From Kiritimatiellota bacterium (GTDB lineage: Bacteria > Verrucomicrobiota > Kiritimatiellia > Kiritimatiellales > Tichowtungiaceae): a DNA stretch of 25,647 nucleotides. The notes below the pieces were generated by a model. The model was not told the DNA's origin. It saw only the letters and a list, made by a program, of their open reading frames with translations, and did not search any database. Location: the NCBI GenBank assembly GCA_014381785.1, contig JACNKZ010000074.1, forward strand, positions 1 to 25,647. The letters run 5' to 3'. Made by a program: the position numbers and the translations under genes. Of this stretch, positions 175 to 24,043 are shown one piece after another; position 1 is the first letter of the stretch, and every line of letters begins with the position of its first letter.

Positions 175-283
175 TTCCAAACATTGGAACCGGCGCGGTC
201 ACCGCCCGCACCTACAGATCTGTAGCCACGCACGACGGGCGCGGTTGTCCTGCCCTTGGAAAAAATTCTTCCAAACTTTGGAA
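175..283. repeat. Iterated palindrome copies (TTCCAA-N3-TTGGAA) in the comM-upstream spacer
   Basis: Perfect copies at 175-189 (ACA core) and 269-283 (ACT). A degenerate copy GTCCTGCCCTTGGAA lies at 247-261. The 14-bp palindrome CTACAGATCTGTAG at 212-225 sits between them. Confidence 0.9.
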
Positions 284-705: not shown

Positions 706-2637
706 CTAAAAAAATCCACGGTCTTTTTGCAAGAGATGCGGAGGGATTTCGTTGATGAAGCGGGAGGGCTCTAAAAAGATGATGCCGCCGTCGCGCTGGC
801 GGCGCACCTCGGGGCTGCACAGGAAGAGGTGGTCTTCGGCGCGGGTGACGGCGACGTAGAACAGCCGTCGCTCTTCGGAATCCCCCGCCTCTTCGATCGA
901 TTTGGTGCCCGGGAACATGCTCTCACACAGGAAGAGCACAAAGACCGCCTTGAACTCCAGTCCTTTGGCCTGATGAATGGTGCTGAGGCGCAGGGAGTCG
1001 GCCGGATCGGTGTCGGTTCGTGTGTCGCCCTCCGCATCGAGGTTCGAGAGCAGGGCGATTTCGCTGAGAAACGCCTCGGTGGTTTCAAATTTGGTGGTGA
1101 AGTCGATCAGTCCATCGAGATCTTCGGCGCGGTATTTGGAGTTATCAAAATTTTCTACCATGAACTCGTTGTAGAACGCCTTATTGAAACGGTAGACGAT
1201 TTCGCCGGGGTCGGCGTCGAGGGTTTCTTCGCGGTAAGCCAGAAAGACCGGCTCGATTTTTTTCCATTCGTCGCGCGCGGCGGCGGGCAGGGCGGTTTCA
1301 ACCTGCATACAGACCTCTTTGCGCTGCAGATTCACCCGTCCGCCGAGGGTTCGGAAAATTTTGAGCGAGGTCTTTTTTCCAACCTTTGGAAAAAGTTCCA
1401 ACAGACGGGTGAAGGCCAGCTCGTCGCCGGGGTTGACCAGGATCCGCAGTACGGTGCAGACGTCTTTGATGTGCGCCTGCTCGAAGAACCGGACGCCGGA
1501 GGTGACGATGTAGGGCATGGACGCGCGCGCCAGCTCCATCTGCAGTTCCATGGCGTGGAAGTGGGAGCGGTAGAGCACGCACATGTCCGAAGGGGAAATC
1601 CCTTCGCGGCGGAGCATCTGTACCTTTTCGATAATGTAGCGCGCCTGCGCACTGCCGTCGCGCAGTCCGGCGAGGACGGGATAGGCCCCTTCCGGACGGA
1701 CGGCTTTGAGTTCTTTCTGGAACTGGTCGGGATTGCCGGCAATCGCCGCGTTGGCGACCTCGAGGATTTCCGGCGTGGAGCGATAGTTGATCTGCAGCTT
1801 AAATTCGCGTGTGCCGGGATAGTGGCGTCCGAAGTCGAGAAAGTTGCGGAAGTCGGCGCCGCGCCACGAGTAGATGCTCTGGAAGTCGTCCCCCACCACC
1901 ATGATGTTCTGATGGACCTTGGCGAGCAGCTCCACCATGCGCGCCTGAATGGCGTTGGTGTCCTGATACTCATCGACAAGGATGTATTGAAACTCCTCCT
2001 GATAGAACCGCAGGATCTGTTCGTTTTGTTCGAGCAGCTTCAGGGCGTAGGAAAGGAGATCGTCGAAGTCCATCGCGTTCTGCTCTTTCTTGCGCTTCTG
2101 ATAGAGGTCGTGCACGCGGATGACATCTTCGAAGTCCACCTCGGTGTGTTCGAAGCGCTCAGCCAGCCCGTCGGCCAGATCGCCCATCTGTCCGCCGATG
2201 ACGCCGAAGATGCTTTGCAGCACCTGCGGCTTGGGAAAATGCTTTTTATCCATCTTCAGGTCGTCCGCGCAGGATCCGAGCAGCTTTTTGGAGTCGTCGG
2301 CGTCGAGGATGGCGAAGTTGTTGTCGAAGCCGACGCGCGGCGCGTGCGAGCGCAGGATGCGGTTGGCGAAGCGGTGGAATGTGCCGCTATAGCCGCTGGT
2401 GAAGGGGCGGTTGACCAGCCGTTCCGCGCGCTCAAGCATTTCGCCGGCGGCTTTGTTCGTGAAGGTCAGCAGTAGCATGTTGCGCGGGTCGAGCCCGCGC
2501 TCTTTCACCAGCCAGGCCAGACGATAGACCAGCGTGCGGGTTTTACCGGTTCCGGCCGCGGCAATGACGAGCGCCGGCCCGTCCGGAGCGGTGACGGCGG
2601 CGTACTGCTCTTCGTTGAGTTCCTTTTTGAAATTCAT
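706..2637 (-). CDS. UvrD/PcrA/Rep-family superfamily 1 ATP-dependent DNA helicase (643 aa)
   Basis: Motif I AAAGTGKT, motif II VDEYQDTN, motif III VGDDFQSIYSWRGA, NYRS, TIHQAKGLEF and YVAVTRAEDHL are all present in canonical order. Confidence 0.93.
   Translation of the reverse strand: MNFKKELNEEQYAAVTAPDGPALVIAAAGTGKTRTLVYRLAWLVKERGLDPRNMLLLTFTNKAAGEMLERAERLVNRPFTSGYSGTFHRFANRILRSHAPRVGFDNNFAILDADDSKKLLGSCADDLKMDKKHFPKPQVLQSIFGVIGGQMGDLADGLAERFEHTEVDFEDVIRVHDLYQKRKKEQNAMDFDDLLSYALKLLEQNEQILRFYQEEFQYILVDEYQDTNAIQARMVELLAKVHQNIMVVGDDFQSIYSWRGADFRNFLDFGRHYPGTREFKLQINYRSTPEILEVANAAIAGNPDQFQKELKAVRPEGAYPVLAGLRDGSAQARYIIEKVQMLRREGISPSDMCVLYRSHFHAMELQMELARASMPYIVTSGVRFFEQAHIKDVCTVLRILVNPGDELAFTRLLELFPKVGKKTSLKIFRTLGGRVNLQRKEVCMQVETALPAAARDEWKKIEPVFLAYREETLDADPGEIVYRFNKAFYNEFMVENFDNSKYRAEDLDGLIDFTTKFETTEAFLSEIALLSNLDAEGDTRTDTDPADSLRLSTIHQAKGLEFKAVFVLFLCESMFPGTKSIEEAGDSEERRLFYVAVTRAEDHLFLCSPEVRRQRDGGIIFLEPSRFINEIPPHLLQKDRGFF
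1377..1391. repeat. Iterated palindrome copy inside the helicase CDS
   Basis: TTTTTTCCAACCTTTGGAAAAAG, perfect with T/A-run flanks. Translated on the minus strand as FPKVGKK. Confidence 0.9.
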
Positions 2638-3364: not shown

Positions 3365-3462
3365 TTCCAATGCTTGGAAAAAAGACTGAGGCTAAAAATT
3401 TTTGAGCACCTGTTTTTCCAATGTTTGGAAGCAGGGATCGGTTATTTTTCCAAACATTGGAA
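3365..3462. repeat. Cluster of three perfect iterated palindromes between the ArsR-like and yihY 3' ends
   Basis: 3365-3379 (TGC), 3416-3430 (TGT), 3448-3462 (ACA). Centre spacings are 51 and 32 bp. Confidence 0.95.
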
Positions 3463-7103: not shown

Positions 7104-9506
7104 CTATGCGTCCGGTCTGTATTCCTCGTCATCGTCGGGAAAATCCTGCGGGGCTTCCGCCTCGGCGATCGGTTCGTCCGGTATGTCGCCGGGCTCCTCC
7201 GCGGGGGTGTACACGGTGGGGGCATCGGGGATTTCGCCGTCGAGATCCACAAGAATATCGCGCGGACCGGTTTCGGTCGGCGGACCGATGATGCCTTTTT
7301 CTTCGAGCAGATCCATGAGGTTGGCGGCGCGGTTATACCCGATCCGCAGGCGGCGCTGCAGCGAGGAGGTCGACGCGCGCTTGGTGGAGCGCAGCACCTC
7401 CATCGCCTGTTCGAGCAGCTCGTCGCTCTCGTCGAGCTCCGGCATGGCCGGTTTGTTACTCTCGATCTTCTGCGTGATTTCGGTGATGAAATCGGGCGTG
7501 CCCTGCGTGCGGACAAAGTCGGTAACGCGGGCCATCTCTGTGTCTTTGGTCCAGGCTCCCTGCAGGCGGACCGGCTTGCTCCTGCCGGGCGGTAGGTAGA
7601 GCATGTCGCCTTTGCCGAGCAGTTTTTCGGCGCCGATGGTGTCGAGAATGGTGCGGCTGTCGTTGCCCTGCGCCACCTGGAAGGCGATGCGGCCCGGGAT
7701 GTTGGCTTTGATGGTTCCGGTGATGACGTTCACGGACGGGCGCTGCGTGGCGAGGATCATATGGATACCGGCGGCGCGCGAGAGCTGGGCCAGACGTACG
7801 ATGCACGGCTCAATCTCCTGCTGGGCGACGCCCATCAGCTCGGCCAGCTCATCGACCACAATAACGATGTAGGGCAGCTTGGCCGGAACGTCATTCACGG
7901 CGGGTTTGAGTTCGCCGAACATGTCTTCCTGTTTTTCAATCGGGCGCTCGTTGAAGCTCTTGATGTCGCGCACCTTCATTTTTTTGAACAGCGCATAACG
8001 TTTTTCCATCTCTTTAATCGCCCAGCGCAGGCCGAGGGTCACCTTTTTGGCATCGGTGATGATCGGCACCACGAGATGTTTAAGGTTTTCGTAGGCTTGG
8101 AATTCGAAGGTTTTCGGGTCGACGAGAATCATGCGCATCTGCTCCGGGGTGCGCGTGAGCAGCAGGCCGGTCAGCAGGGAGTTCATACAGACGGTTTTGC
8201 CCGCGCCGGTGGCGCCGGCGATCAGCAGATGCGGCATACTGGCGAGGTCGCCGACAATCAGTTTGCCGGACACATCGGTTCCGAGCGCGAGCGGCAGCGC
8301 CACGGTGGGATCGTGGAACGCCCTGCTTTCCGCCAGCTGGCGCAGAAGGACCGGCGAGCTTTTGGAGTTGGGAATTTCAATGCCGACCGCCCCTTTGCCG
8401 GGAATCGGAGCCTGAATACGAATGCTCTGCGCGCGCAGTGCCAGCGCGATGTTGCGTTCGAGCGAGGAGATTTTTTCGACGCGCACGCCGGGGGCCGGGG
8501 TAACCTCGTACGAGGTGACGGTCGGGCCGACCTCAACGTGAGTCACTTCGCCTTCCACACCGAACTGTTCCAGCGTGGCTTGTAGAATGCGGGCTTTTTC
8601 GGCTGTGTTCTCGGTGGACTGCATGGTTCTGGCCGGGGGCAGTTCGTCGAGCAGCGTGATCGGCGGCAGCTGGTAGCCGGACTTGTCGACACCGGGGGCG
8701 ATATTGACGGAAACGTGCGCCAGATCATCTTTTTCCGGCGCGACGACCGGCGCTTTTTTCCTCGCTTCGATTTTAGGAGCCGCCGGCTTCGGAGCCGGTT
8801 TGGGTGCGGGAGCCGCCGCCGGAGCGGGCGGGGTGAAGAGCTCTTGCGCTTTTTGTTTGCGGGTGCGCTTTTTCGGTTTAGCCGTTGGCACTGGCGCGGC
8901 GACCGGCTCTTCTACCGAACCCTTTTTGCGGTTCACCAACGCTTTCACCTGCGTCCAGAGGAAGATGAACGGCGTGAACGGATGCATGCCGGTTAGTTGA
9001 AGAAGGGCCAGCACCAGAACGGTGACAAACACGATGCTCGCGCCGGCATGGCCGATCCAGCTCCCAAGGGTGCGGACGGCCAACAGCTGACCAATCAGTC
9101 CGCCGGGGCTGCCGACATTCAGCCAGCCGGCCAACCGGTCAGCCCACTGCCAGGGGAGATATTCAAAAAGTCCGGCCAGCGCAATCAGCCCTCCGGCGAG
9201 CCAGCTCCAGACCGGCCAGATCCGTTCATAGGAGCGCAGGGTCATCAGCAGCCCGCCCATCAACAGAGCGAACGGCACCAGATAGCCGGCAATGCCGAAC
9301 CACATAAACCCGGCGAAGGAAAACCAGACGCCGACGATTCCGCTGGGGGAGAAACTCTCCGGCGGATTGTTAAACAGTGGAACGTATTCCGGCCGGTAAC
9401 TGAAAAAACAGAAGAAGCTCCAAAAGCAGAGTCCCAGCAGGATAATGCCAAAGGCTTCCTTCTTTGTGGAACGGACGGGTTCAGCGGGTTTTGATTTTTT
9501 AGCCAT
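7104..9506 (-). CDS. ftsK: DNA translocase FtsK
   Basis: N-terminal TM segments, a Pro/Ala/Lys-rich linker, Walker A GATGAGKTV, Walker B IVIVVDELAELM, and the gamma wHTH domain ASTSSLQRRLRIGYNRAANLMDLLEEKGIIGP. Start MAKKSKP at 9506 is preferred over the ORF-track 9575. Confidence 0.93.
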   Translation of the reverse strand: MAKKSKPAEPVRSTKKEAFGIILLGLCFWSFFCFFSYRPEYVPLFNNPPESFSPSGIVGVWFSFAGFMWFGIAGYLVPFALLMGGLLMTLRSYERIWPVWSWLAGGLIALAGLFEYLPWQWADRLAGWLNVGSPGGLIGQLLAVRTLGSWIGHAGASIVFVTVLVLALLQLTGMHPFTPFIFLWTQVKALVNRKKGSVEEPVAAPVPTAKPKKRTRKQKAQELFTPPAPAAAPAPKPAPKPAAPKIEARKKAPVVAPEKDDLAHVSVNIAPGVDKSGYQLPPITLLDELPPARTMQSTENTAEKARILQATLEQFGVEGEVTHVEVGPTVTSYEVTPAPGVRVEKISSLERNIALALRAQSIRIQAPIPGKGAVGIEIPNSKSSPVLLRQLAESRAFHDPTVALPLALGTDVSGKLIVGDLASMPHLLIAGATGAGKTVCMNSLLTGLLLTRTPEQMRMILVDPKTFEFQAYENLKHLVVPIITDAKKVTLGLRWAIKEMEKRYALFKKMKVRDIKSFNERPIEKQEDMFGELKPAVNDVPAKLPYIVIVVDELAELMGVAQQEIEPCIVRLAQLSRAAGIHMILATQRPSVNVITGTIKANIPGRIAFQVAQGNDSRTILDTIGAEKLLGKGDMLYLPPGRSKPVRLQGAWTKDTEMARVTDFVRTQGTPDFITEITQKIESNKPAMPELDESDELLEQAMEVLRSTKRASTSSLQRRLRIGYNRAANLMDLLEEKGIIGPPTETGPRDILVDLDGEIPDAPTVYTPAEEPGDIPDEPIAEAEAPQDFPDDDEEYRPDA

Positions 9507-9546: not shown

Positions 9547-10374
9547 TTAAGCTCTTCTGCATTTGAAAATAACAACCACCGGAATGCGGGCGAGCTGGTC
9601 GTACAGCGCGCGCCAGCCTTTGCTGTCGTAGGGAACCTTTTCGAGGATCTCCTTTTTGCTCATGTCGGGGATCGGCAGGGGGGCGGGTTCGAGCAGTCGC
9701 TCAATGACCAATCCGGCGTTATATATCCATTCGGCAATCTGTGAAATCGGCCAGGTTTGCGCGGCGTTCATGGTTTTGTCGTCCATCGACATGCGCACAT
9801 CGGCTTCGAGTTGAAAATAGTCGGGCAGGAAGACGCCGTCCTCCCCGTCGCCGATGTCGAGCCATTCTCCGGCGTAGAGCGGATGGCCGGTGGTCAGCAA
9901 CAGCGTGCCGCCGAGCTTGAGCATTGCGGCGCAGTCGGAGATCACCTTGGCCGGGTCGGCTGAGAACGGTAATGCGTAAGAGGAATGAATGAGGTCGAAG
10001 GAAGCAGGCTCCCACGCTCCCTCTTGCAATGAGTCCATCGAAACGCAGCGGAAATCGACGTTGACGTTTTCTTTGGCGGCCAGCTTGCGGCCGTGCGCGA
10101 GCTGTTCTTCAGAAATATCGATGGCGACACACTGCGCACCCTGCTTGGCCAGAAAGATGGAGTTCTGCCCCGCGCCGCAGCCGATTTCCAAACATTGGAA
10201 AATTCCGCCGGAATTTTTTCCAATGTTTGGAAGGAGTTCAAGCTGCGAATCGCCGGGCAGGAGCGGGCCGTAGTGGAAGTCGCTGGTGGAGATGCGGGTC
10301 TCTTTCTGATAGAGCTCCGCGATGTCGTTCCAGTAGCGCGCGCTGCTTGCGTCGGTGTTGCCATTAAATTGCAT
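9547..10374 (-). CDS. Class I SAM-dependent methyltransferase
   Basis: Motif I LEIGCGAGQN and the Methyltransf_11/25-like layout. Start MQFNGNTD at 10374. The ORF-track extension to 10533 reads through repeat DNA (SNVWK). Confidence 0.82.
   Translation of the reverse strand: MQFNGNTDASSARYWNDIAELYQKETRISTSDFHYGPLLPGDSQLELLPNIGKNSGGIFQCLEIGCGAGQNSIFLAKQGAQCVAIDISEEQLAHGRKLAAKENVNVDFRCVSMDSLQEGAWEPASFDLIHSSYALPFSADPAKVISDCAAMLKLGGTLLLTTGHPLYAGEWLDIGDGEDGVFLPDYFQLEADVRMSMDDKTMNAAQTWPISQIAEWIYNAGLVIERLLEPAPLPIPDMSKKEILEKVPYDSKGWRALYDQLARIPVVVIFKCRRA
10186..10232. repeat. 47-bp near-perfect composite palindrome (two iterated palindromes plus palindromic spacer) inside the methyltransferase CDS
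   Basis: TTCCAAACATTGGAA-AATTCCGCCGGAATTTT-TTCCAATGTTTGGAA, translated as PNIGKNSGGIFQCLE. Confidence 0.95.
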
Positions 10375-10384
10375 GTGGAAAATT

Positions 10385-10470
10385 TTCCAGACATTGGAAC
10401 CGGAAAGCAAGCCGCAACACGGCCGGAGGAGGAAATCATCCAAACCCCAGGGCTTTTCCACCCGTTGGAG
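10385..10470. repeat. Iterated palindrome copies in the methyltransferase/ferritin divergent spacer
   Basis: 10385-10399 TTCCAGACATTGGAA (1 mismatch) lies 10 nt upstream of the methyltransferase ATG. 10456-10470 TTCCACCCGTTGGAG has 2 mismatches. Confidence 0.8.
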
Positions 10471-10553: not shown

Positions 10554-11063
10554 ATGGGAAGTCGTGGAATCTCAATCGTCGGAATGGATGTCAACGAGCT
10601 GGTGACTATCCTCAACAAAGCACTCAGTGATGAGTGGCTGGCCCACTATCAGTATTGGGTGGGCTCCAAGGTAGTGGCCGGGCCGATGAAGGACGCGGTG
10701 ATTGCCGAGCTGGTTCAGCACGCTGCGGAGGAGATGGGACACGCGGAGCTGCTTTCCACCCGAATTATTCAGCTGGGCGGCACGCCGGTGTTAACTCCGG
10801 AGCAGTGGTTTAAGTCGACCACCTGCGGTTATGACGCGCCGGAAGATCCGTTTGTGCAGGCGGTGCTGCAGCAGAACATCAAAGGCGAGCAGTGCGCGAT
10901 TGGGGTGTACGACCAGTTGATGAAGCTGACGAAAGATGCGGACCCGGTCACCTATAACATGGCCCTGCAGATTCTTGAGCAGGAAGTGGAGCATGAGCAG
11001 GATCTTCAGGATTTACTGGATGACCTCAAAATAATGCTCAGCCGCTGCCACATGAGCGAATAA
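10554..11063 (+). CDS. Ferritin-like (Dps/bacterioferritin superfamily) protein
   Basis: ATG at 10554 is preceded by AGAGGAGG. Di-iron style helices are present: LSDEWLAHYQYW, HAAEEMGHAELL, EQEVEHEQDL. Confidence 0.75.
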   Translation: MGSRGISIVGMDVNELVTILNKALSDEWLAHYQYWVGSKVVAGPMKDAVIAELVQHAAEEMGHAELLSTRIIQLGGTPVLTPEQWFKSTTCGYDAPEDPFVQAVLQQNIKGEQCAIGVYDQLMKLTKDADPVTYNMALQILEQEVEHEQDLQDLLDDLKIMLSRCHMSE

Positions 11064-11081: not shown

Positions 11082-11603
11082 CTAAAAAACCGGCTGGCCG
11101 TTTTCGTCTTTTTTATGACGCAAAATCCAGGGGGTGTTGGGGAAAAGGCGTGTTTTTTGCATGAAGGAGAGGACGATGGCCGCCGCCGCCAGTGCCAGCG
11201 GAAGAACGGTTCCCGGACCGACGGTTCCTATGCTGAGCACGGTAGAGATTCCCAGCAGCAGGGCCAGCAGGTAGCCAATCAGGTTGAAGTTTTTGATGCC
11301 GTAGATCGTGTAGATATGGATGATCACGATCAGCACTGCGCGGGCAGTGTAGGGGCCCGGGGTCTGAAATGCGGGTGCCAGCCGGAGCGCATTGACGAGT
11401 GTGAAGACAATCACAATGATCATCAGCGGGTAGTTCAGGTAGCGGTTCTTTTCGCAAGCTTCCGGAAGGGGCCACTGGGCGAGGGCGCGCTCGACCGATG
11501 CGGCACTGAACCGCTCTTTCAGGGCGTTGTAGATATCGATTTTGCTTTCCCCGGCTTTGAGACGGGTTTGCACCGCTTGGCTAAGTTCTCTGCGTAGACT
11601 CAT
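11082..11603 (-). CDS. Hypothetical integral membrane protein
   Basis: AAGGAGAT SD before the ATG at 11603. Soluble N-terminus followed by 3-4 hydrophobic segments. No family recognised. Confidence 0.6.
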   Translation of the reverse strand: MSLRRELSQAVQTRLKAGESKIDIYNALKERFSAASVERALAQWPLPEACEKNRYLNYPLMIIVIVFTLVNALRLAPAFQTPGPYTARAVLIVIIHIYTIYGIKNFNLIGYLLALLLGISTVLSIGTVGPGTVLPLALAAAAIVLSFMQKTRLFPNTPWILRHKKDENGQPVF

Positions 11604-11680: not shown

Positions 11681-12967
11681 TTATGAGTGATCGCGGGAGA
11701 CTAGCAGGAACACTTTATCCTGTCGACGGGCTTTGGCGGTAAGCGCCCCGGCAGCAGAGCGCAGCTCGCTACAGGGCAGGCGCAGGGTGACCATGTCTCC
11801 GGGGTTTGCCGCGTCGGTGGGTTCGCCGTCGACGCGCAGGTTTTCGGCGGTGAAGCGAACGGCGCCGGTGGTCGGGCCTTCAATCAGCAGCTGGTCGCCC
11901 GGCTGAATGGTGTGTTTGATCAGTTTGAACTCTGCCACGTTGAGGTTGGCAAAAAAGTTGGAGACGGTTCCGATCTGGTCGCGCGTTTCGGTCGCCTGAG
12001 AATGGGAGTTACCCGACCATTCGCCGAGCGGTTTGCCGCAGTAGTAGCCGCCGTGCCAGAAGCCGCGGTTGAAGACCTTACTCAGTTCGTCAATCCATGG
12101 CTGGCAAGTTGACGGATCGTAGGTTCCGGCGGCGAGGGCGTCGAGCGCTTCGCGGTAGACGCGGGTGGTGACGGCCACGTAGTCGGCGGTGCGCGCGCGG
12201 CCCTCCAGCTTGAGCACGGAAATGCCGGCGACGGAAATTTTGTCGAGGTATTGAACGGTGCAGAGATCTTTGGGTGACATGATGTGTTTGTTATCGATCA
12301 CCAGTTCTTCGCCGGTTTCCTCGTCGGTGACGCGGTAGCTGCGGCGGCAGGTCTGCAGGCAGGCGCCGCGGTTGGCGGAGTGGTTGTTCTGCGCCAGACT
12401 CATGTAGCACTTGCCGCTGACGGCGACGCACAGCGCGCCGTGGCCGAACAGTTCGAGCCGGACCGGTTCGCCGGACGGGCCGCGCACATCGTGCTCCTGC
12501 ACTTTTTTATAAATAGTGGAAATCTGGTCAAGCGTCAGCTCGCGTGCGAGCACGACGGTGTCGGCCCAGCGCGAATAAAATTCCAAGGCTTGGAAATTGG
12601 CGACATTGGCCTGCACGGAGATATGCACTTCGAGGCCGAGTGAGCGGGCGGTTTCGATGGTGGCGATGTCGGTGGCGATGACGGCGGAAACGCCGGCGGC
12701 TTTGGCGGACTCGCACAGCGACTGCATCTCTTGCATCTCGTTGTCGTAGATGATGGTGTTGAGCGCGAGGTAGCTTTTTACGCCCGCTTCGCGGCAGCGC
12801 GCGGCGATGCTCGGCAGATCGTCCGCGGTGAAATCGGCTGAGCGCGCCCGCATATTGAGTTTGCCGACGCCGAAATAGACCGAGTCCGCGCCGGCGTCAA
12901 TGGCGGCGCTCAGCGCCGCCTGCGATCCGGCCGGAGCCATCAGTTCAATTTTTGATTGGTTGCTCAT
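11681..12967 (-). CDS. Peptidase U32 family protein (collagenase-like / RlhA-TrhP-type)
   Basis: N-terminus MSNQSKIELMAPAGSQAALSAAIDAGADSVYFG is the canonical U32 start. The rest matches U32 layout (ELFGHGALCVAVSGKCYMS). The ORF-track extension to 13309 is rejected. Confidence 0.88.
   Translation of the reverse strand: MSNQSKIELMAPAGSQAALSAAIDAGADSVYFGVGKLNMRARSADFTADDLPSIAARCREAGVKSYLALNTIIYDNEMQEMQSLCESAKAAGVSAVIATDIATIETARSLGLEVHISVQANVANFQALEFYSRWADTVVLARELTLDQISTIYKKVQEHDVRGPSGEPVRLELFGHGALCVAVSGKCYMSLAQNNHSANRGACLQTCRRSYRVTDEETGEELVIDNKHIMSPKDLCTVQYLDKISVAGISVLKLEGRARTADYVAVTTRVYREALDALAAGTYDPSTCQPWIDELSKVFNRGFWHGGYYCGKPLGEWSGNSHSQATETRDQIGTVSNFFANLNVAEFKLIKHTIQPGDQLLIEGPTTGAVRFTAENLRVDGEPTDAANPGDMVTLRLPCSELRSAAGALTAKARRQDKVFLLVSRDHS
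12581..12595. repeat. Iterated palindrome copy inside the U32 peptidase CDS
   Basis: AAAATTCCAAGGCTTGGAAATT, perfect. Translated as FQALE. Confidence 0.85.
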
Positions 12968-12981
12968 TACAGTTCCACAGT

Positions 12982-12996
12982 TTCCAATGTTTGGAT
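12982..12996. repeat. Iterated palindrome copy centred in the 42-bp U32/tspO divergent spacer
   Basis: TTCCAATGTTTGGAT (1 mismatch). It lies 14 nt from the U32 ATG and 13 nt from the tspO ATG. Confidence 0.85.
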
Positions 12997-13009
12997 AAAA
13001 TGCACAACC

Positions 13010-13477
13010 ATGAAGGGTCTTAAGAATGTCGGAAGGGTTCTCCTGTTTCAACTGATTGCGTTTTTGCCGTCGCTCGGAGCACTCGCGGTGCGGACGGACG
13101 GGTGGTACGCCCAGCTTTCGAAACCGGCCTGGAATCCGCCGCCTGCCGTGTTCGGCCCCGTGTGGACGGCTTTGTATGTTCTGATTGGGCTGGCCGGATA
13201 TTTTGCGTGGACGCGCGGCGGGCGGCGAGGCCGCCTTACCGTATTTGCCGTGTATGGAATGCAACTCCTTCTCAACGCACTGTGGACTCCGCTCTTTTTT
13301 GGACTGCACCGCCCGGCGCTCGCGCTGGCGGATCTGATTTTGATGTGGTTTCTGATTTTGCTTTGCATCGGCCGGTTTGCGCCGCGCAGCCGGTTGGCGG
13401 CCTGGCTGATGTTGCCGTACTTCCTGTGGGTATCGTTTGCCGGCGCGCTCAATGCCGCGATCGTCTGGATGAACTGA
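13010..13477 (+). CDS. tspO: TspO/MBR family tryptophan-rich sensory protein
   Basis: WYAQLSKPAWNPPPAVFGPVWTALYVL and LNALWTPLFFG are signature TspO motifs. Length from the ATG at 13010 is 155 aa, matching the family. Confidence 0.9.
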   Translation: MKGLKNVGRVLLFQLIAFLPSLGALAVRTDGWYAQLSKPAWNPPPAVFGPVWTALYVLIGLAGYFAWTRGGRRGRLTVFAVYGMQLLLNALWTPLFFGLHRPALALADLILMWFLILLCIGRFAPRSRLAAWLMLPYFLWVSFAGALNAAIVWMN

Positions 13478-15043: not shown

Positions 15044-15173
15044 TTTTTGACAGGATAACAGGATGGACTGGATTTTCTAAAGGAGACAGCTCTTGACCCA
15101 GCTGATCAGAAAGGGCTCTCCTCCTGATTTACAGGATATTTGATCCTGATCATCTTGTTATCCTGTCAAAAAA
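15044..15173. repeat. 22-nt inverted repeat pair enclosing 85 nt, in the 387-bp non-coding tsaD-yjdM spacer
   Basis: TTTTTGACAGGATAACAGGATG (15044-15065) versus the reverse complement of CATCTTGTTATCCTGTCAAAAAA (15151-15173), 21/22 match. GATCCTGATCAT is directly repeated at 15142-15153 and 15233-15244. Confidence 0.7.
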
Positions 15174-16750: not shown

Positions 16751-17992
16751 TTATTTTTTCCACTCCTGAGAGATAATCATTCCTTTGAGCGCGCCGATGG
16801 CGGCATCAAGCTGCACGTCACGGATTTCCGGCTCGGTGTTGAGCAGTTCGTCTGTTTCGTCAGGGTCCTGCGCTTCCTGGATGCGCAGCAGGAAGAGATC
16901 TTCGGCTGGCATGGTAACGGTGTGATCCGGCTCAATACCGTGGTCATGAATAACCCGCTCGCTCGGGGTGTAGTATTTGGCGGTGGTGAGTTTGACGGCG
17001 GAGCCGTCTTCGAGCGGCACAAGACTCTGCACGGAGCCTTTGCCGAAGGTTTTTTCGCCGACGAGCATCGCCCGTTTATGATCCTGCAGCGCGCCAGCCA
17101 CGATCTCAGAGGCGCTGGCGCTGCCGCCGTTGATAAGAATCACCATCGGGAAATTTTTGGCGGTGTAGTGGGTGAGCCCGTTCGATGTAAACCGCCGGTC
17201 TTCTGAGCCTGCTTCGCGGCCCTTGGTGAAGACAATTAACTTGCCGCGCGGCAGAAACAGTTCGGCCACTTCAGCGGCGGAGGTCAGCAGGCCGCCGGGA
17301 TTTCCGCGCAGGTCGAGCACCAGTCCGGTCAACCCTTCGTCGACGAGCGTTTTAAGCGCGGCTTTTAGATCGGTGCCGGTCGGCTCATTGAATTGGGTGA
17401 TGCGGATGTAGCCGATTCCATCCTGAACCATTTTGGCATCTTTCACGCTCGCGACATCAATTTCCTCGCGGGTGATGGTGATCTCTTCGACCTTATGAGT
17501 AGAAGGGCGCAGGGTTTTAAGTTGCACGTCGGTTCCGGGCTCGCCGCGCATCAGCTTCACGGAATCAGAGAGACTGAGCTCCCGGGTTTCCTGTTTATCG
17601 ACTTCCAGGATGACATCGCCGGATACAATGCCGGCGCGGAAACCGGGCGTGTCCTCCATTGGCGAAACGACGGTGAGCAGGCCGTCTTTCATGCTGATCA
17701 CGATGCCGATGCCGCCGAAGCTGCCGGCGGTGTCGTCTCTCATATCTTGGTATTCCTCCGCGTCCATGAACTGGCTGTAGGGATCGAGGTTTTGGAGCAT
17801 GCCGGTAAGTGCGTGGCGAATCAGGGCGTCATATCCCGCCTCATCCGTGTCGACATAGTTGCGGTGCACCTCCTCGAGAACCTTGGTGAACAGCCCGATT
17901 GCCTCGTAGGCATTGGTGAACGGCTCGGACGCGTGCGCGCCGCCGCTCAGGACGATCAGTAAAGACAGTGTGGCGAGAAGTTTACGTTTCAT
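16751..17992 (-). CDS. S41-family C-terminal processing peptidase (CtpA/Prc-like) with PDZ domain
   Basis: Signal peptide MKRKLLATLSLLIVLSGGAHA, FGGIGIV, PDZ segment, LDLRGNPGGLL, GGSASASEIVAGALQD, GEKTFGKGSVQ. Confidence 0.92.
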   Translation of the reverse strand: MKRKLLATLSLLIVLSGGAHASEPFTNAYEAIGLFTKVLEEVHRNYVDTDEAGYDALIRHALTGMLQNLDPYSQFMDAEEYQDMRDDTAGSFGGIGIVISMKDGLLTVVSPMEDTPGFRAGIVSGDVILEVDKQETRELSLSDSVKLMRGEPGTDVQLKTLRPSTHKVEEITITREEIDVASVKDAKMVQDGIGYIRITQFNEPTGTDLKAALKTLVDEGLTGLVLDLRGNPGGLLTSAAEVAELFLPRGKLIVFTKGREAGSEDRRFTSNGLTHYTAKNFPMVILINGGSASASEIVAGALQDHKRAMLVGEKTFGKGSVQSLVPLEDGSAVKLTTAKYYTPSERVIHDHGIEPDHTVTMPAEDLFLLRIQEAQDPDETDELLNTEPEIRDVQLDAAIGALKGMIISQEWKK

Positions 17993-18004: not shown

Positions 18005-18050
18005 TTCCAAAGGTTGGAAGATTTTTACCGTAAAGTTTCGAGCCTTGGAA
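18005..18050. repeat. Iterated palindrome pair between thiE and the S41 peptidase gene
   Basis: 18005-18019 TTCCAAAGGTTGGAA (perfect) lies 12 nt upstream of the S41 ATG. 18036-18050 TTTCGAGCCTTGGAA has 2 mismatches. Centres are 31 bp apart. Confidence 0.85.
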
Positions 18051-18081
18051 GCCATAGCATGGCGGCAAGCGGGTTTTTCTG

Positions 18082-18821: not shown

Positions 18822-18888
18822 AAAGTGGGACAGGCATCCTGCCTGTCTACCCATGCACTGCAGACAGGCAGGATGCCTGTCCCACTTT
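18822..18888. repeat. Perfect 27-bp inverted repeat with 13-nt loop (GC-rich REP-like element) between thiH and thiE
   Basis: AAAGTGGGACAGGCATCCTGCCTGTCT (18822-18848) and AGACAGGCAGGATGCCTGTCCCACTTT (18862-18888). Each arm also contains its own palindrome, GACAGGCA-N3-TGCCTGTC. The right arm overlaps the thiH stop codon. Confidence 0.9.
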
Positions 18889-20794: not shown

Positions 20795-20989
20795 TCAGCC
20801 TCCTCCCACAAAGGTGAGCACTTCGACGCTGTCGCCGTCGCTGAATTTAAAATTGTTCCAATCCTTGGAAAAAACGAGATCGCCGTTGACGGTGATCGCG
20901 GTGTATTCGGGGTTGGCGCCGAGTTCGGAGAGCAGGGCGGCGATGGTGCCGGCGTGTTCGTGGCTTTCGCCGTTAACTGTCAGATTCAT
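20795..20989 (-). CDS. thiS: Sulfur-carrier protein ThiS
   Basis: 64 aa, [11 protein letters not shown]..., ends in GG (FVGGG). AGGAGA SD. First gene after the TPP riboswitch. Confidence 0.88.
20856..20870. repeat. Iterated palindrome copy inside thiS
   Basis: TTCCAATCCTTGGAAAAAA, perfect. Translated on the minus strand as SKDWN. Confidence 0.85.
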
Positions 20990-21103: not shown

Positions 21104-21138
21104 GCAAAAAACTCCCGGCGCAGACGACGGGAGTTTTT
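21104..21138 (-). terminator. Intrinsic terminator forming the expression platform of the TPP riboswitch
   Basis: On the minus strand, ACTCCCG-N10-CGGGAGT is followed by TTTTTT. The 5' arm ACUCCC can alternatively pair with the GGGAGU of the aptamer's closing helix (anti-terminator logic). Confidence 0.8.
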
Positions 21139-21140
21139 AA

Positions 21141-21226
21141 CGTCACTCCCTTTCGCCGGTACTAACCGGATCAGGTTCTGCGGGTATTATCTCAGCGCTC
21201 CAAAAAAGAGGCACCCCGGGAACAGG
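21141..21226 (-). promoter_or_regulatory. TPP (THI-box) riboswitch aptamer
   Basis: Minus strand reads GGGGUGCC...GCGCUGAGAUAAUACCCGCAGAACCUGAUCCGGUUAGUACCGGCGAAAGGGAG. It contains the conserved CUGAGA, ACCC and AACCUGAUCCGG...CCGGCG..AGGGA elements of the TPP riboswitch. It lies upstream of thiS. Confidence 0.9.
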
Positions 21227-21333
21227 CTTGAGAGGATGCCAAGGTGGGGTGGAAAAGCATAGATCAAAAAAGCGCTTATTTTGTGTTGCGCCGTTCGCTC
21301 CGTTTGTTATCTTGCTCGCTCGCTTTTGCCGAT

Positions 21334-21408
21334 GGCCCCATCGTTCAGCGGTTAGGACTCCAGGTTTTCATCCTGGCAACACGGGTTCGATTCCCGTTGG
21401 GGTCACCA
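21334..21408 (+). tRNA. tRNA-Glu (anticodon UUC), CCA encoded
   Basis: GGCCCCATCGTTCAGCGGTTAGGACTCCAGGTTTTCATCCTGGCAACACGGGTTCGATTCCCGTTGGGGTCACCA. Acceptor stem GGCCCCA/TGGGGTC, anticodon stem CCAGG/CCTGG with loop TTTTCAT, T-arm CGGGTTCGATTCCCG. Confidence 0.93.
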
Positions 21409-21580: not shown

Positions 21581-21652
21581 AAAGTGGAGCAGACACTCCT
21601 GTCTGCTCATCCCTGCGAGCCAGAAAAGGGCAGACAGGAGCGTCTGCCCCAC
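21581..21652. repeat. Inverted pair of GC-rich REP-like hairpins, same family as 18822-18888
   Basis: AAAGTGGAGCAGACActccTGTCTGCTC (21581-21608) and GGGCAGACaggagcGTCTGCCCCAC (21628-21652). The AAAGTGG/CCCAC flanks and CAGAC/GTCTG stems parallel the thiH-thiE element. Confidence 0.7.
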
Positions 21653-21654
21653 AT

Positions 21655-21690
21655 AACAAAAAAGCCGCCCCTTTCGGAGCGGCTTTTTTT
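21655..21690. terminator. Bidirectional intrinsic terminator (fabI on minus strand, tRNA-Glu transcript on plus strand)
   Basis: AAAAAAGCCGCCCCTTTCGGAGCGGCTTTTTTT. GC-rich stem flanked by an A-run and a T-run. Confidence 0.8.
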
Positions 21691-23880: not shown

Positions 23881-24043
23881 TTCCAAGGGTTGGGCTCTGC
23901 GTTGCCAGAGGGCGATGCAGGTCAAGAAAAGAAAAGGAGCCGCCATGCTATGGCTTCCAATGTCTGGAAAAAATGTGCTAGCTTCGCTCCGGATTTTTCC
24001 AAGGGCTGGAAAAAAAGGTATGAAATTTTTCCAATGGTTGGAA
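23881..24043. repeat. Array of four iterated palindromes in the repeat-protein/nadB divergent spacer
   Basis: 23881-23895 TTCCAAGGGTTGGGC (2 mismatches). 23955-23969 TTCCAATGTCTGGAA (1). 23997-24011 TTCCAAGGGCTGGAA (1). 24029-24043 TTCCAATGGTTGGAA (perfect, 11 nt before the nadB ATG). Confidence 0.9.

Follow-up and report, generated by a model that had tools for sequence, protein, structure and literature searches.

Introduction

Repeated short words, several of them palindromic, are known from different groups of bacteria. Here we compare these systems with a split palindrome, TTCCA-N5-TGGAA (hereafter the box), which recurs in a stretch of 25,647 nt of DNA from a Kiritimatiellota bacterium of the family Tichowtungiaceae (contig JACNKZ010000074.1 of assembly GCA_014381785.1; the whole stretch is referred to as the window) and in related sequences. 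The focal copy lies in the divergent spacer between a U32 peptidase gene and tspO. To our knowledge, regulation in Kiritimatiellota is essentially unstudied.

The REP (repetitive extragenic palindromic)/BIME and REPIN elements of gamma-proteobacteria are short iterated palindromes that form arrays in spacers, in many cases no more than about 15 nt from a stop codon. The box is shorter than these elements (15-21 nt versus 20-40 nt) and its hairpin is weak. Unlike them it is found inside coding sequences (CDSs) at 0.36 copies per kb and also in divergent spacers, its linkers are conserved in length without being conserved in sequence, and its pairs are not inverted doublets. The uptake signal sequences (USS) of Haemophilus and the DNA uptake sequences (DUS) of Neisseria resemble the box in density, in the dominance of exact copies, in their presence in both CDSs and spacers and in being shared at the level of a family; they are tolerated in CDSs in preferred reading frames. 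The box differs from USS and DUS in being palindromic and in having neighbours that are spaced in whole helical turns. HIP1 (GCGATCGC) of cyanobacteria is a contiguous palindromic 8-mer, lineage-wide, over-represented in CDSs and spacers and maintained at the DNA level; we know of no agreed function and of no reported spacing rule for it. The box is likewise a lineage-wide, over-represented palindromic word in CDSs and spacers, but it is a split 15-19-mer with arrays and with a peak after stop codons.

A fourth comparison is with the Lrp/AsnC family of regulators. Dimers of the Lrp family bind palindromes of 15 bp, with adjacent sites helically aligned at 2-3 turns, and natural Lrp sites are described as degenerate (PMC2995911). 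The dimers bind cooperatively and the DNA wraps the protein (PMC2995911, PMC1802622). The box of Ss-LrpB is TTGCAAAATTTGCAA, and strong base pairs at the box centre impair binding of Ss-LrpB (PMC1802622). The Kiritimatiellales box is a 15-bp dyad with the same 5-N5-5 layout, its two 5-bp arms being one helical turn apart. It agrees with TTGCAAAATTTGCAA at 10 of 12 defined positions (TTsCAA ... TTGsAA), and its neighbouring copies lie on the same face of the helix at 2-3 turns (20-22, 30-32 and 40-42 bp in our data). Unlike Lrp sites, the box has a G/C centre in place of the A+T-rich one that Lrp-type proteins contact through a compressed minor groove, it is near-invariant (443 exact versus 182 one-mismatch copies) and not degenerate, and it occurs about once per 2 kb, including CDSs and positions after stop codons, whereas Lrp-type regulators have few promoter targets. 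Because of the G/C centre, the near-invariance and the spread through CDSs and 3' ends, we do not classify the box as an Lrp site.

Results

The box is abundant and near-invariant in Kiritimatiellales

The window contains 22 copies of TTCCA-N5-TGGAA (17 exact and 5 with one mismatch) versus 0.95 expected, a number that was reached by none of 100 shuffles. No spacing of the arms other than N5 occurs. The extended consensus, built from 113 copies of which 87% have C or G at the centre, is tTTCCA(A/g)nSn(T/c)TGGAAaa, and nothing is conserved in flanks or linkers past 3-4 A or T bases. The frequency in uncultured Kiritimatiellales is about one copy per 2 kb. Nearly all related loci, recovered through their U32 orthologues from metagenome-assembled genomes (MAGs) labelled Tichowtungia, Pontiellaceae or Kiritimatiellales, are enriched in the box (0.8-12 copies per 10 kb), and the box is absent from the loci of two outgroups, Spartobacteria and KSB1. 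Across 827 kb of related sequence the 182 one-mismatch copies amount to about 6 per variant, compared to 443 for the exact word, and two-mismatch copies are at chance level (about 1 per variant).

A scan of a viral collection returned 33 matches, all but three of them single-copy and mostly on low-GC contigs. These single copies are consistent with chance and also serve as a control for the metagenome matches. Only one viral match has several boxes: L152 (IMG/VR IMGVR_UViG_3300010411_000001), with 5 boxes in 9.1 kb and a GC content of 0.56, which may be a prophage or a host fragment from a box-bearing lineage. Literature searches for the box word and for Kiritimatiellota promoter motifs returned nothing relevant. 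The element seems not to have been described before, and it is unusual in the properties that it combines.

Neighbouring boxes are spaced in whole helical turns

The spacing of boxes was analyzed in an independent test set of metagenome contigs carrying TTTCCAAACATTGGAAA, which comprised 120 loci and 730 kb and of which 82 loci had at least two generic copies. Distances between unique neighbour pairs fall into discrete classes of 20-22 bp (13 pairs), 30-32 bp (75 pairs), 40-42 bp (22 pairs), 50-53 bp (8 pairs), 62-64 bp (6 pairs) and 72-74 bp (5 pairs), with further pairs at 83, 94-95, 105, 114-116 and 136 bp; the intervals between the classes are almost empty. A period scan fits best at 10.45 bp, with a phase offset of zero (R = 0.80, p ~1e-46 in a Rayleigh test), and the signal persists when the dominant 30-32 bp class is removed (R = 0.68, p ~1e-18). 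The periodicity extends to 146 bp, or 14 turns. A neighbour within 160 bp is present for 352 of 625 copies. In the window and 21 named MAGs, neighbours are 20, 31-32, 41-43, 51-52, 71-74, 94, 104 or 112-113 bp apart.

The linkers between boxes are conserved in length and not in sequence. The orientation of the centres of neighbouring boxes is random (CG 42, GC 32, CC plus GG 50), and among the pairs at 30-32 bp only 11 of 66 have complementary centres. Random orientation and the small number of complementary centres indicate that each box of a pair is an independent site with two-fold symmetry and that both lie on the same face of B-DNA. On the same grounds, box pairs acting as long hairpins or as REPIN doublets were ruled out.

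Boxes inside genes are held by rare codons

The U32 peptidase CDS contains two boxes 74 bp apart (about 7 turns), which encode FQALE and ISNVWK. The pair is exact in 13-14 of 20 ingroup species and mostly carries one mismatch in the rest; the box at 12581 is conserved in about 19 relatives, and in 14 of these a second, exact box is retained 74 bp from it. Where the clade has NFQALEFY and ISNVWK, the outgroups and the divergent Pontiellaceae MAG L016 have NM[DE]AV[RK]FY and I[TRK]..[CWA], respectively. Within the boxes, codon choice departs from that of the rest of the gene: Leu is encoded by TTG in 13 of 19 cases versus 3% gene-wide, Ile by ATT in 20 of 20 versus 35%, Ser by TCC in 18 of 19 versus 33%, and Gln by CAA in 12 of 20 versus 27%. 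Among CDS copies in general one reading frame, frame 0 (F-Q-x-L-E), is dominant (52 of 92), and about 25 independent occurrences of FQxLE were counted, where by a rough estimate fewer than one is expected. The CDS copies are thus held by rare synonymous codons, and the protein sequence is reshaped by the box.

The two boxes in the methyltransferase CDS are conserved in three related loci (L007, 11929-11975; L012, 4231-4319, with three copies; L017, 12051-12085, with a spacing of 20 bp). The third box in relatives lies 42 bp further on and brings extra residues. These boxes lie in a loop before the S-adenosylmethionine-binding motif. The number of boxes in this loop varies from 1 to 3 among species, with residues added, such as ...FQCLENNMGGGSASFQCLEIG in L012. 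Compared with the window, L007 has both of its centres flipped (ACA to TGT).

Boxes accumulate behind stop codons

The position of boxes relative to genes was determined with two home-made gene callers. The first over-extended starts and placed 81% of copies in CDSs, and the second, penalised, under-extended them. Only starts on which both callers agreed were used for start metaplots, which probably under-samples box-led starts such as those of the methyltransferase and tspO. About two thirds of the copies lie inside called CDSs. The density is 0.36 copies per kb in CDSs by both callers, 1.7-1.9 in convergent spacers, 1.3-1.8 in tandem spacers and 1.3-1.4 in divergent spacers. The strongest feature of the metaplots is found after stops: 30 box centres lie 0-19 nt past the 614 stops, compared to 2-6 per bin inside genes, and the mode of the stop-to-box distance is 1-5 nt. 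In tandem spacers the median distance of a box is about 8-17 nt from the stop and about 55 nt to the next start, and in divergent spacers one side is often 7-22 nt from a start. Some short spacers consist wholly of phased boxes, for example one in L127 (stop, 6 nt, three boxes, 8 nt, ATG). When the first box lies at most 15 nt past the stop, its sense-strand centre is C in 23 cases and G in 9 (metagenome and MAG loci together).

Between two convergent genes of L093 (6059-7228 and 7311-7973), at about 7240-7310, a box forms the tip of a longer, G+C-rich hairpin (aaagcccggtt[box]aaccgggcttt). With the box at its core, this structure has the appearance of an intrinsic terminator for both directions.

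An earlier note on the window, made from its sequence alone, had described the palindrome as an element tied to start codons and had named a genome-wide enrichment at -10 to -25 as the corresponding check. This link is mostly not supported: the peak is after stops, the density in convergent spacers equals or exceeds that in divergent ones, about two thirds of the copies are in CDSs, and the proximal gaps to starts in relatives range from 0 to 36 nt (0, 3, 7, 8, 8, 8, 11, 12, 12, 14, 17, 19, 20 and so on). A box is found at most 200 nt upstream of 67 of 446 confident starts, and 8 of these 67 nearest copies lie at 7-14 nt versus about 3 expected. With start calls that are themselves imperfect, the metaplot thus shows a weak proximal excess and essentially no specific enrichment at -10 to -25. 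Raw peaks in the offset from ATG codons at 27, 101 and 103 nt were rejected as a start signal; those that could be traced derive from copies in the U32 CDS that are shared by orthologous loci.

The divergent U32-tspO spacer and four other box-led starts

In the window the box is found directly upstream of five start codons (Table 1). The palindrome and all five gaps of 10, 11, 12, 13 and 14 nt that the earlier note had listed were recovered, with the correction that the U32 ATG is at 12967 and not at 12968, and U32 and tspO do share a single copy in their spacer. The five start codons match the stored gene calls of the same species. Homology of the methyltransferase with seven orthologues (tblastn) opens exactly at the Met of ATG 10374, and a signal peptide follows the ATG of the S41 peptidase at 17992. 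Also as the note had it, a canonical Shine-Dalgarno sequence is lacking at these genes: the GGAG core is present in none of the five, with a weak AGGGA for S41, and it is found in the ferritin-like gene, yjdM, the rodZ-like gene, thiS and the gene starting at 11603. Seven gene starts of the window have a copy in their 5' spacer, and in five of them the nearest copy is at 10-14 nt. As the five gaps draw on only 4 of the 22 window copies, they represent a selected subset.

The focal box, together with a gap of 12-13 nt on the tspO side, recurs in L007, L010 and L013, and weaker copies occupy its position in L016 and L018. A second box is retained 8-10 nt upstream of the U32 ATG in L007, L008 and L012. 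This second box in relatives and the remnant arm in the window (Table 1) indicate that the 42-nt spacer is a shortened two-box spacer.

Other features of the window

The remaining copies lie past stop codons (3365, 611 and 663), inside CDSs (1377, 1546, 3416, 3448, 10186, 10218, 12581 and 20856) or further upstream (Table 1). Where the 3' ends of the double-ArsR gene and brkB converge, two boxes of the array fall within the last codons of brkB, and no start codon is nearby. The boxes of nadB and S41 are each adjoined by a 16-mer that contains a small palindrome. The 16-mer GCCGCCATGCTATGRC occurs twice in L007 (1996-2011 and 16277-16292) and is found only in the species of the window and its closest relative; it was rejected as a -10 or sigma-54 element, as it lacks both a T at -7 and the GG/GC spacing.

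Table 1. Boxes and associated features of the window (coordinates in nt; gaps are measured from the edge of the box to the ATG).
Feature	Position	Strand	Description
Two exact boxes	175-283		94 bp apart; leftmost spacer
Two boxes	611, 663 (611-677)		52 bp apart; after uvrD, in spacer between two stop codons
Exact box	1377-1391		Inside uvrD CDS; full T and A flanks
Box	1546		Inside CDS
Three-box array, exact	3365, 3416, 3448 (3365-3462)		Spaced 51 + 32 bp; convergent 3' ends of double-ArsR gene and brkB
Two exact boxes	10186, 10218 (10186-10232)		32 bp apart; methyltransferase CDS, encode LPNIGK and FQCLE
Exact box	10385-10399		10 nt upstream of methyltransferase ATG 10374 (minus)
One-mismatch box	10456-10470		71 nt from the 10385 copy; 83 nt upstream of ferritin-like gene, which has its own GGAGG
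Exact box	12581-12595		Inside U32 CDS; encodes FQALE
Divergent U32-tspO spacer	12968-13009		42 nt; U32 ATG 12967 (minus), tspO ATG 13010
Isolated TTCCA	12973-12977		TGGAAC on U32 strand; remnant arm of second box
Sigma-70-like tspO promoter	12974-13001	+	-35 TCCACA 12974-12979, 16-nt spacer, -10 TAAAAT 12996-13001; consensus match only
Focal box TTCCAATGTTTGGAT	12982-12996		TTCCA-N5-TGGAA with one mismatch, in tspO-side arm; 14 nt to U32 ATG, 13 nt to tspO ATG
Exact box	18005-18019		12 nt upstream of S41 peptidase ATG 17992 (minus); 62 nt past thiE stop
Degenerate box	18036-18050		31 bp from S41 box at 18005
16-mer GCCGCCATGCTATGRC	18051-18066	-	Same GCCAT-gct-ATGGC palindrome as 16-mer at 23939; adjoins S41 boxes
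Exact box	20856-20870		Inside thiS CDS
16-mer GCCGCCATGCTATGGC	23939-23954	+	Contains small palindrome GCCAT-gct-ATGGC; adjoins first nadB-array box
Three-box array, exact	23955, 23997, 24029 (23955-24043)		Spaced 42 + 32 bp; upstream of nadB
Exact box	24029-24043		11 nt upstream of nadB ATG 24055

Several further features of the window are of a different kind. The divergent spacer between uvrD and the double-ArsR gene (2638-2792) is strongly A+T-rich, has several TATAAT-like hexamers and is free of boxes, so that conventional-looking promoter regions coexist with box-filled spacers. Upstream of thiS-thiG-thiH-thiE lies a thiamine pyrophosphate (TPP) riboswitch (21130-21228, minus strand), with a divergent tRNA gene (21334-21405, plus strand) alongside. 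A perfect inverted repeat of 27 nt with a loop of 13 nt (AAAGTGGGACAGGCATCCTGCCTGTCT and its reverse complement, 18822-18888) begins at the thiH stop, and a related GCAGACAGG-type hairpin pair (21584-21652) is located beside a canonical terminator (21658-21689). The spacer between yjdM and tsaD, which is unusually long (390 nt), contains a 30-nt inverted repeat (15044-15073 and 15143-15172) whose arms are 87% complementary and 69 nt apart, and which could be a remnant of a miniature inverted-repeat transposable element (MITE) or a regulatory structure. Finally, in L001, a metagenome contig of the same species, the ferritin-like gene is longer by about 155 nt in its 5' region (7508-7607, compared with 10617-10671 of the window). 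This difference is a local duplication unrelated to boxes, and a connection with them was ruled out; variation between strains or an artefact of assembly could account for it.

Discussion

A candidate box for an abundant dimeric DNA-binding protein

Taken together, the strict dyad, the spacing in whole turns and the fact that sequence and not pairing is conserved point to a protein site on double-stranded DNA. The fixed arms, the indifference to the orientation of the centre and the phased pairs that are kept within genes suggest that the protein is a dimer which interacts with its neighbours on the same face of the helix. The reading we favour, to which we assign a probability of slightly more than one half, is that TTCCA-N5-TGGAA (extended tTTCCAAnSnTTGGAAa) would serve in Kiritimatiellales as the high-affinity target of a dimeric DNA-binding protein that is abundant and lineage-specific. 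The architecture would be like that of an Lrp/AsnC-type regulator or of a sequence-specific nucleoid-associated protein. Dimers would contact each other along one face of the helix, by which boxes would be kept at 21-22, 30-32 and 41-42 bp (2, 3 and 4 turns), and arrays of boxes might wrap or loop the DNA. Boxes would accumulate where the sequence can change, just past stops and in short spacers, and would also be held within genes. At the U32-tspO spacer one box fills the -35/-10 spacer of a sigma-70-like tspO promoter, which predicts a near-leaderless mRNA, and lies 14 nt from the U32 ATG; when occupied, it would be expected to block RNA polymerase and to modulate both genes, probably by repression. 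The gaps of 10-14 nt would follow from compact 5' regions without Shine-Dalgarno leaders, with no fixed functional distance.

Several observations do not sit easily with a DNA-binding regulator. The ratio of exact to one-mismatch copies is 2.4 to 1, which is far sharper than in ordinary transcription factor regulons; such exactness is more typical of uptake sequences or of repeat families homogenised by copying. The location of about two thirds of the copies in called CDSs is unusual for a regulator of transcription, and the genes that flank the densest arrays are unrelated housekeeping genes with no recurrent regulator or regulon theme. The G or C at the box centre (87%) is at odds with the A+T-rich centre needed by Ss-LrpB (PMC1802622). 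The peak after stops and the bias of C over G in these copies hint at a component at the level of the transcript or of the insertion site that symmetric binding leaves unexplained. Exactness, the post-stop peak, the C-over-G bias, variation in copy number and flipped centres keep explanations by a mobile element, an uptake signal or an RNA structure alive at lower probability.

Alternative explanations

The box could instead be a selfish miniature palindromic element, comparable to REP/REPIN, the Rickettsia palindromic elements or neisserial dRS3/NIME, that multiplies through insertion, gene conversion or template switching and is retained at sites where the harm is small. We consider this unlikely, although the predominance of exact copies and the pile-up just past stops and in convergent spacers speak for it. 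Copy number at the same locus varies, with 1 or 2 boxes upstream of U32 and 1-3 boxes plus added residues in the methyltransferase loop, and the flip of ACA to TGT in orthologous copies requires three coordinated changes; both speak for such an element. Flanks and linkers, however, show no conservation beyond 3-4 A or T bases, pairs do not form the long hairpins of REPINs and single hairpins are weak, and boxes are abundant in CDSs and are not depleted between divergent genes. A copying mechanism also leaves both the multiples of 10.45 bp and the clade-wide U32 pair with its rare codons unexplained.

That boxes are core promoters of leaderless or near-leaderless mRNAs is distinctly improbable as a general explanation. 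It supposes that the TGGAA arm with its A/T flank forms an extended -10-like element in both directions, which would explain the gaps of 10-14 nt and the lack of Shine-Dalgarno sequences, and all five genes indeed start with ATG and have no GGAG core. In the focal spacer a consensus scan found one sigma-70-like promoter (Table 1) whose 16-nt spacer consists almost wholly of the box; the -10 hexamer TAAAAT begins with the T at 12996, which is the sole arm mismatch of the focal box. The predicted transcription start site is at about 13007-13010, 0-3 nt before the ATG, so that tspO mRNA is predicted to be leaderless or to have a leader of at most 3 nt. A -10-like hexamer adjoins the box again in L007, L010 and L013, in which ACAAC[CT]-ATG is conserved, and xAxxxT hexamers adjoin the box in the tspO-side orthologues and at the methyltransferase, nadB and U32 starts. 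The arrangement resembles that of operators located in the -35/-10 spacer of sigma-70 promoters in that the box fills the spacer and overlaps the -10 hexamer by one base. It differs in that this holds at the tspO site and its orthologues only, while most boxes are outside promoters. In the upstream regions of nadB and S41 no comparable promoter-like match was found, and the arrangement expected of sigma-70 leaderless promoters (hexamers 16-18 nt apart, -10 ending 6-8 nt before the start) is matched by the predicted hexamers at tspO and not at nadB or S41. The proposal in the earlier note that the palindrome region carries initiation signals for near-leaderless mRNAs thus has local support, for tspO only, where a predicted promoter flanks the box. 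A Shine-Dalgarno core is present in about 40% of confident starts and among 458 starts hexamers resembling a -10 are only faintly in excess between -14 and -12, which makes leaderless genes at most a minority. T is not enriched at the would-be -7 position, and many genes as well as the tRNA gene are box-free. The density in convergent spacers, the main peak past stops and start gaps of 0-36 nt also disagree with core promoters, and sigma factors require neither a dyad nor helical phasing between sites.

Still less probable is that the box acts as an RNA hairpin, either as a 3' stability or processing mark or through an effect on the ribosome near the stop, and in 5' leaders as a replacement of the Shine-Dalgarno region. 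The sharp mode 1-5 nt past stops, the 23 to 9 excess of C over G in the sense-strand centre and the copy at the apex of the L093 hairpin are in line with a role in the transcript, as is the slight excess of compensatory over non-compensatory double changes in the arms (1.7 versus 1.0 per variant in the 827 kb). The predicted hairpins, however, are weak (-3.1 kcal/mol for the focal copy and -7.6 kcal/mol at most), and the sequence of the stem is fixed instead of covarying. The stem is A/U-rich, in contrast to the G+C-rich stem and U-run of an intrinsic terminator, and since a T-run precedes it and an A-run follows it the box is not such a terminator. A terminator scan at the boxes of the focal, nadB and S41 regions gave no match, canonical terminators occur separately, and in the window Rfam recognized only the TPP riboswitch and the tRNA, none at boxes. 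A periodicity of the DNA helix that extends to 146 bp cannot be accounted for by an RNA structure. Of the suggestion that the palindrome is an operator or an RNA hairpin in the Shine-Dalgarno position, the operator half therefore gains from the dyad, the conserved sequence and the phasing, and the hairpin half is made unlikely by energies of -3 to -7.6 kcal/mol and barely enriched compensation.

Least probable of all is that the box is an uptake signal of the USS or DUS type, made abundant by molecular drive through transformation, a reading to which the density of about 0.4-0.7 per kb, the predominance of exact copies, the preferred frame in CDSs with imposed peptides such as FQxLE and the sharing by a family-level clade would be suited, but against which stand the phased pairs in CDSs (74, 32 and 20 bp), which argue for a selected interaction at the DNA level, and the asymmetry of the uptake signals known to us, which have no helical phasing between copies.

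Implications for Kiritimatiellales

The box joins traits of uptake and REP-like sequences (abundance, exactness, position after stops, presence in CDSs) with traits of operator arrays (dyad symmetry, phasing). It is of practical use as a clade marker for binning, and it cautions gene callers, as it gives rise to FQxLE-type peptides and to spurious N-terminal extensions. If the DNA-binding protein that we favour exists, it would organise the chromosome or act as a global regulator in a sequence-specific way, through a sharply defined site, and it would offer a tractable entry to the architecture of gene boundaries in the PVC (Planctomycetes-Verrucomicrobia-Chlamydiae) superphylum. A more far-reaching version, which we regard as doubtful, is a sequence-directed chromatin-like system in which an abundant protein on near-invariant 15-bp boxes would wrap DNA in phased arrays at gene boundaries and in which protein sequences, such as that of U32, would have been rewritten to accommodate the boxes. 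If this were true, the arrays could be boundary or insulator elements between transcription units, and a box over a leaderless promoter would be a global on/off operator.

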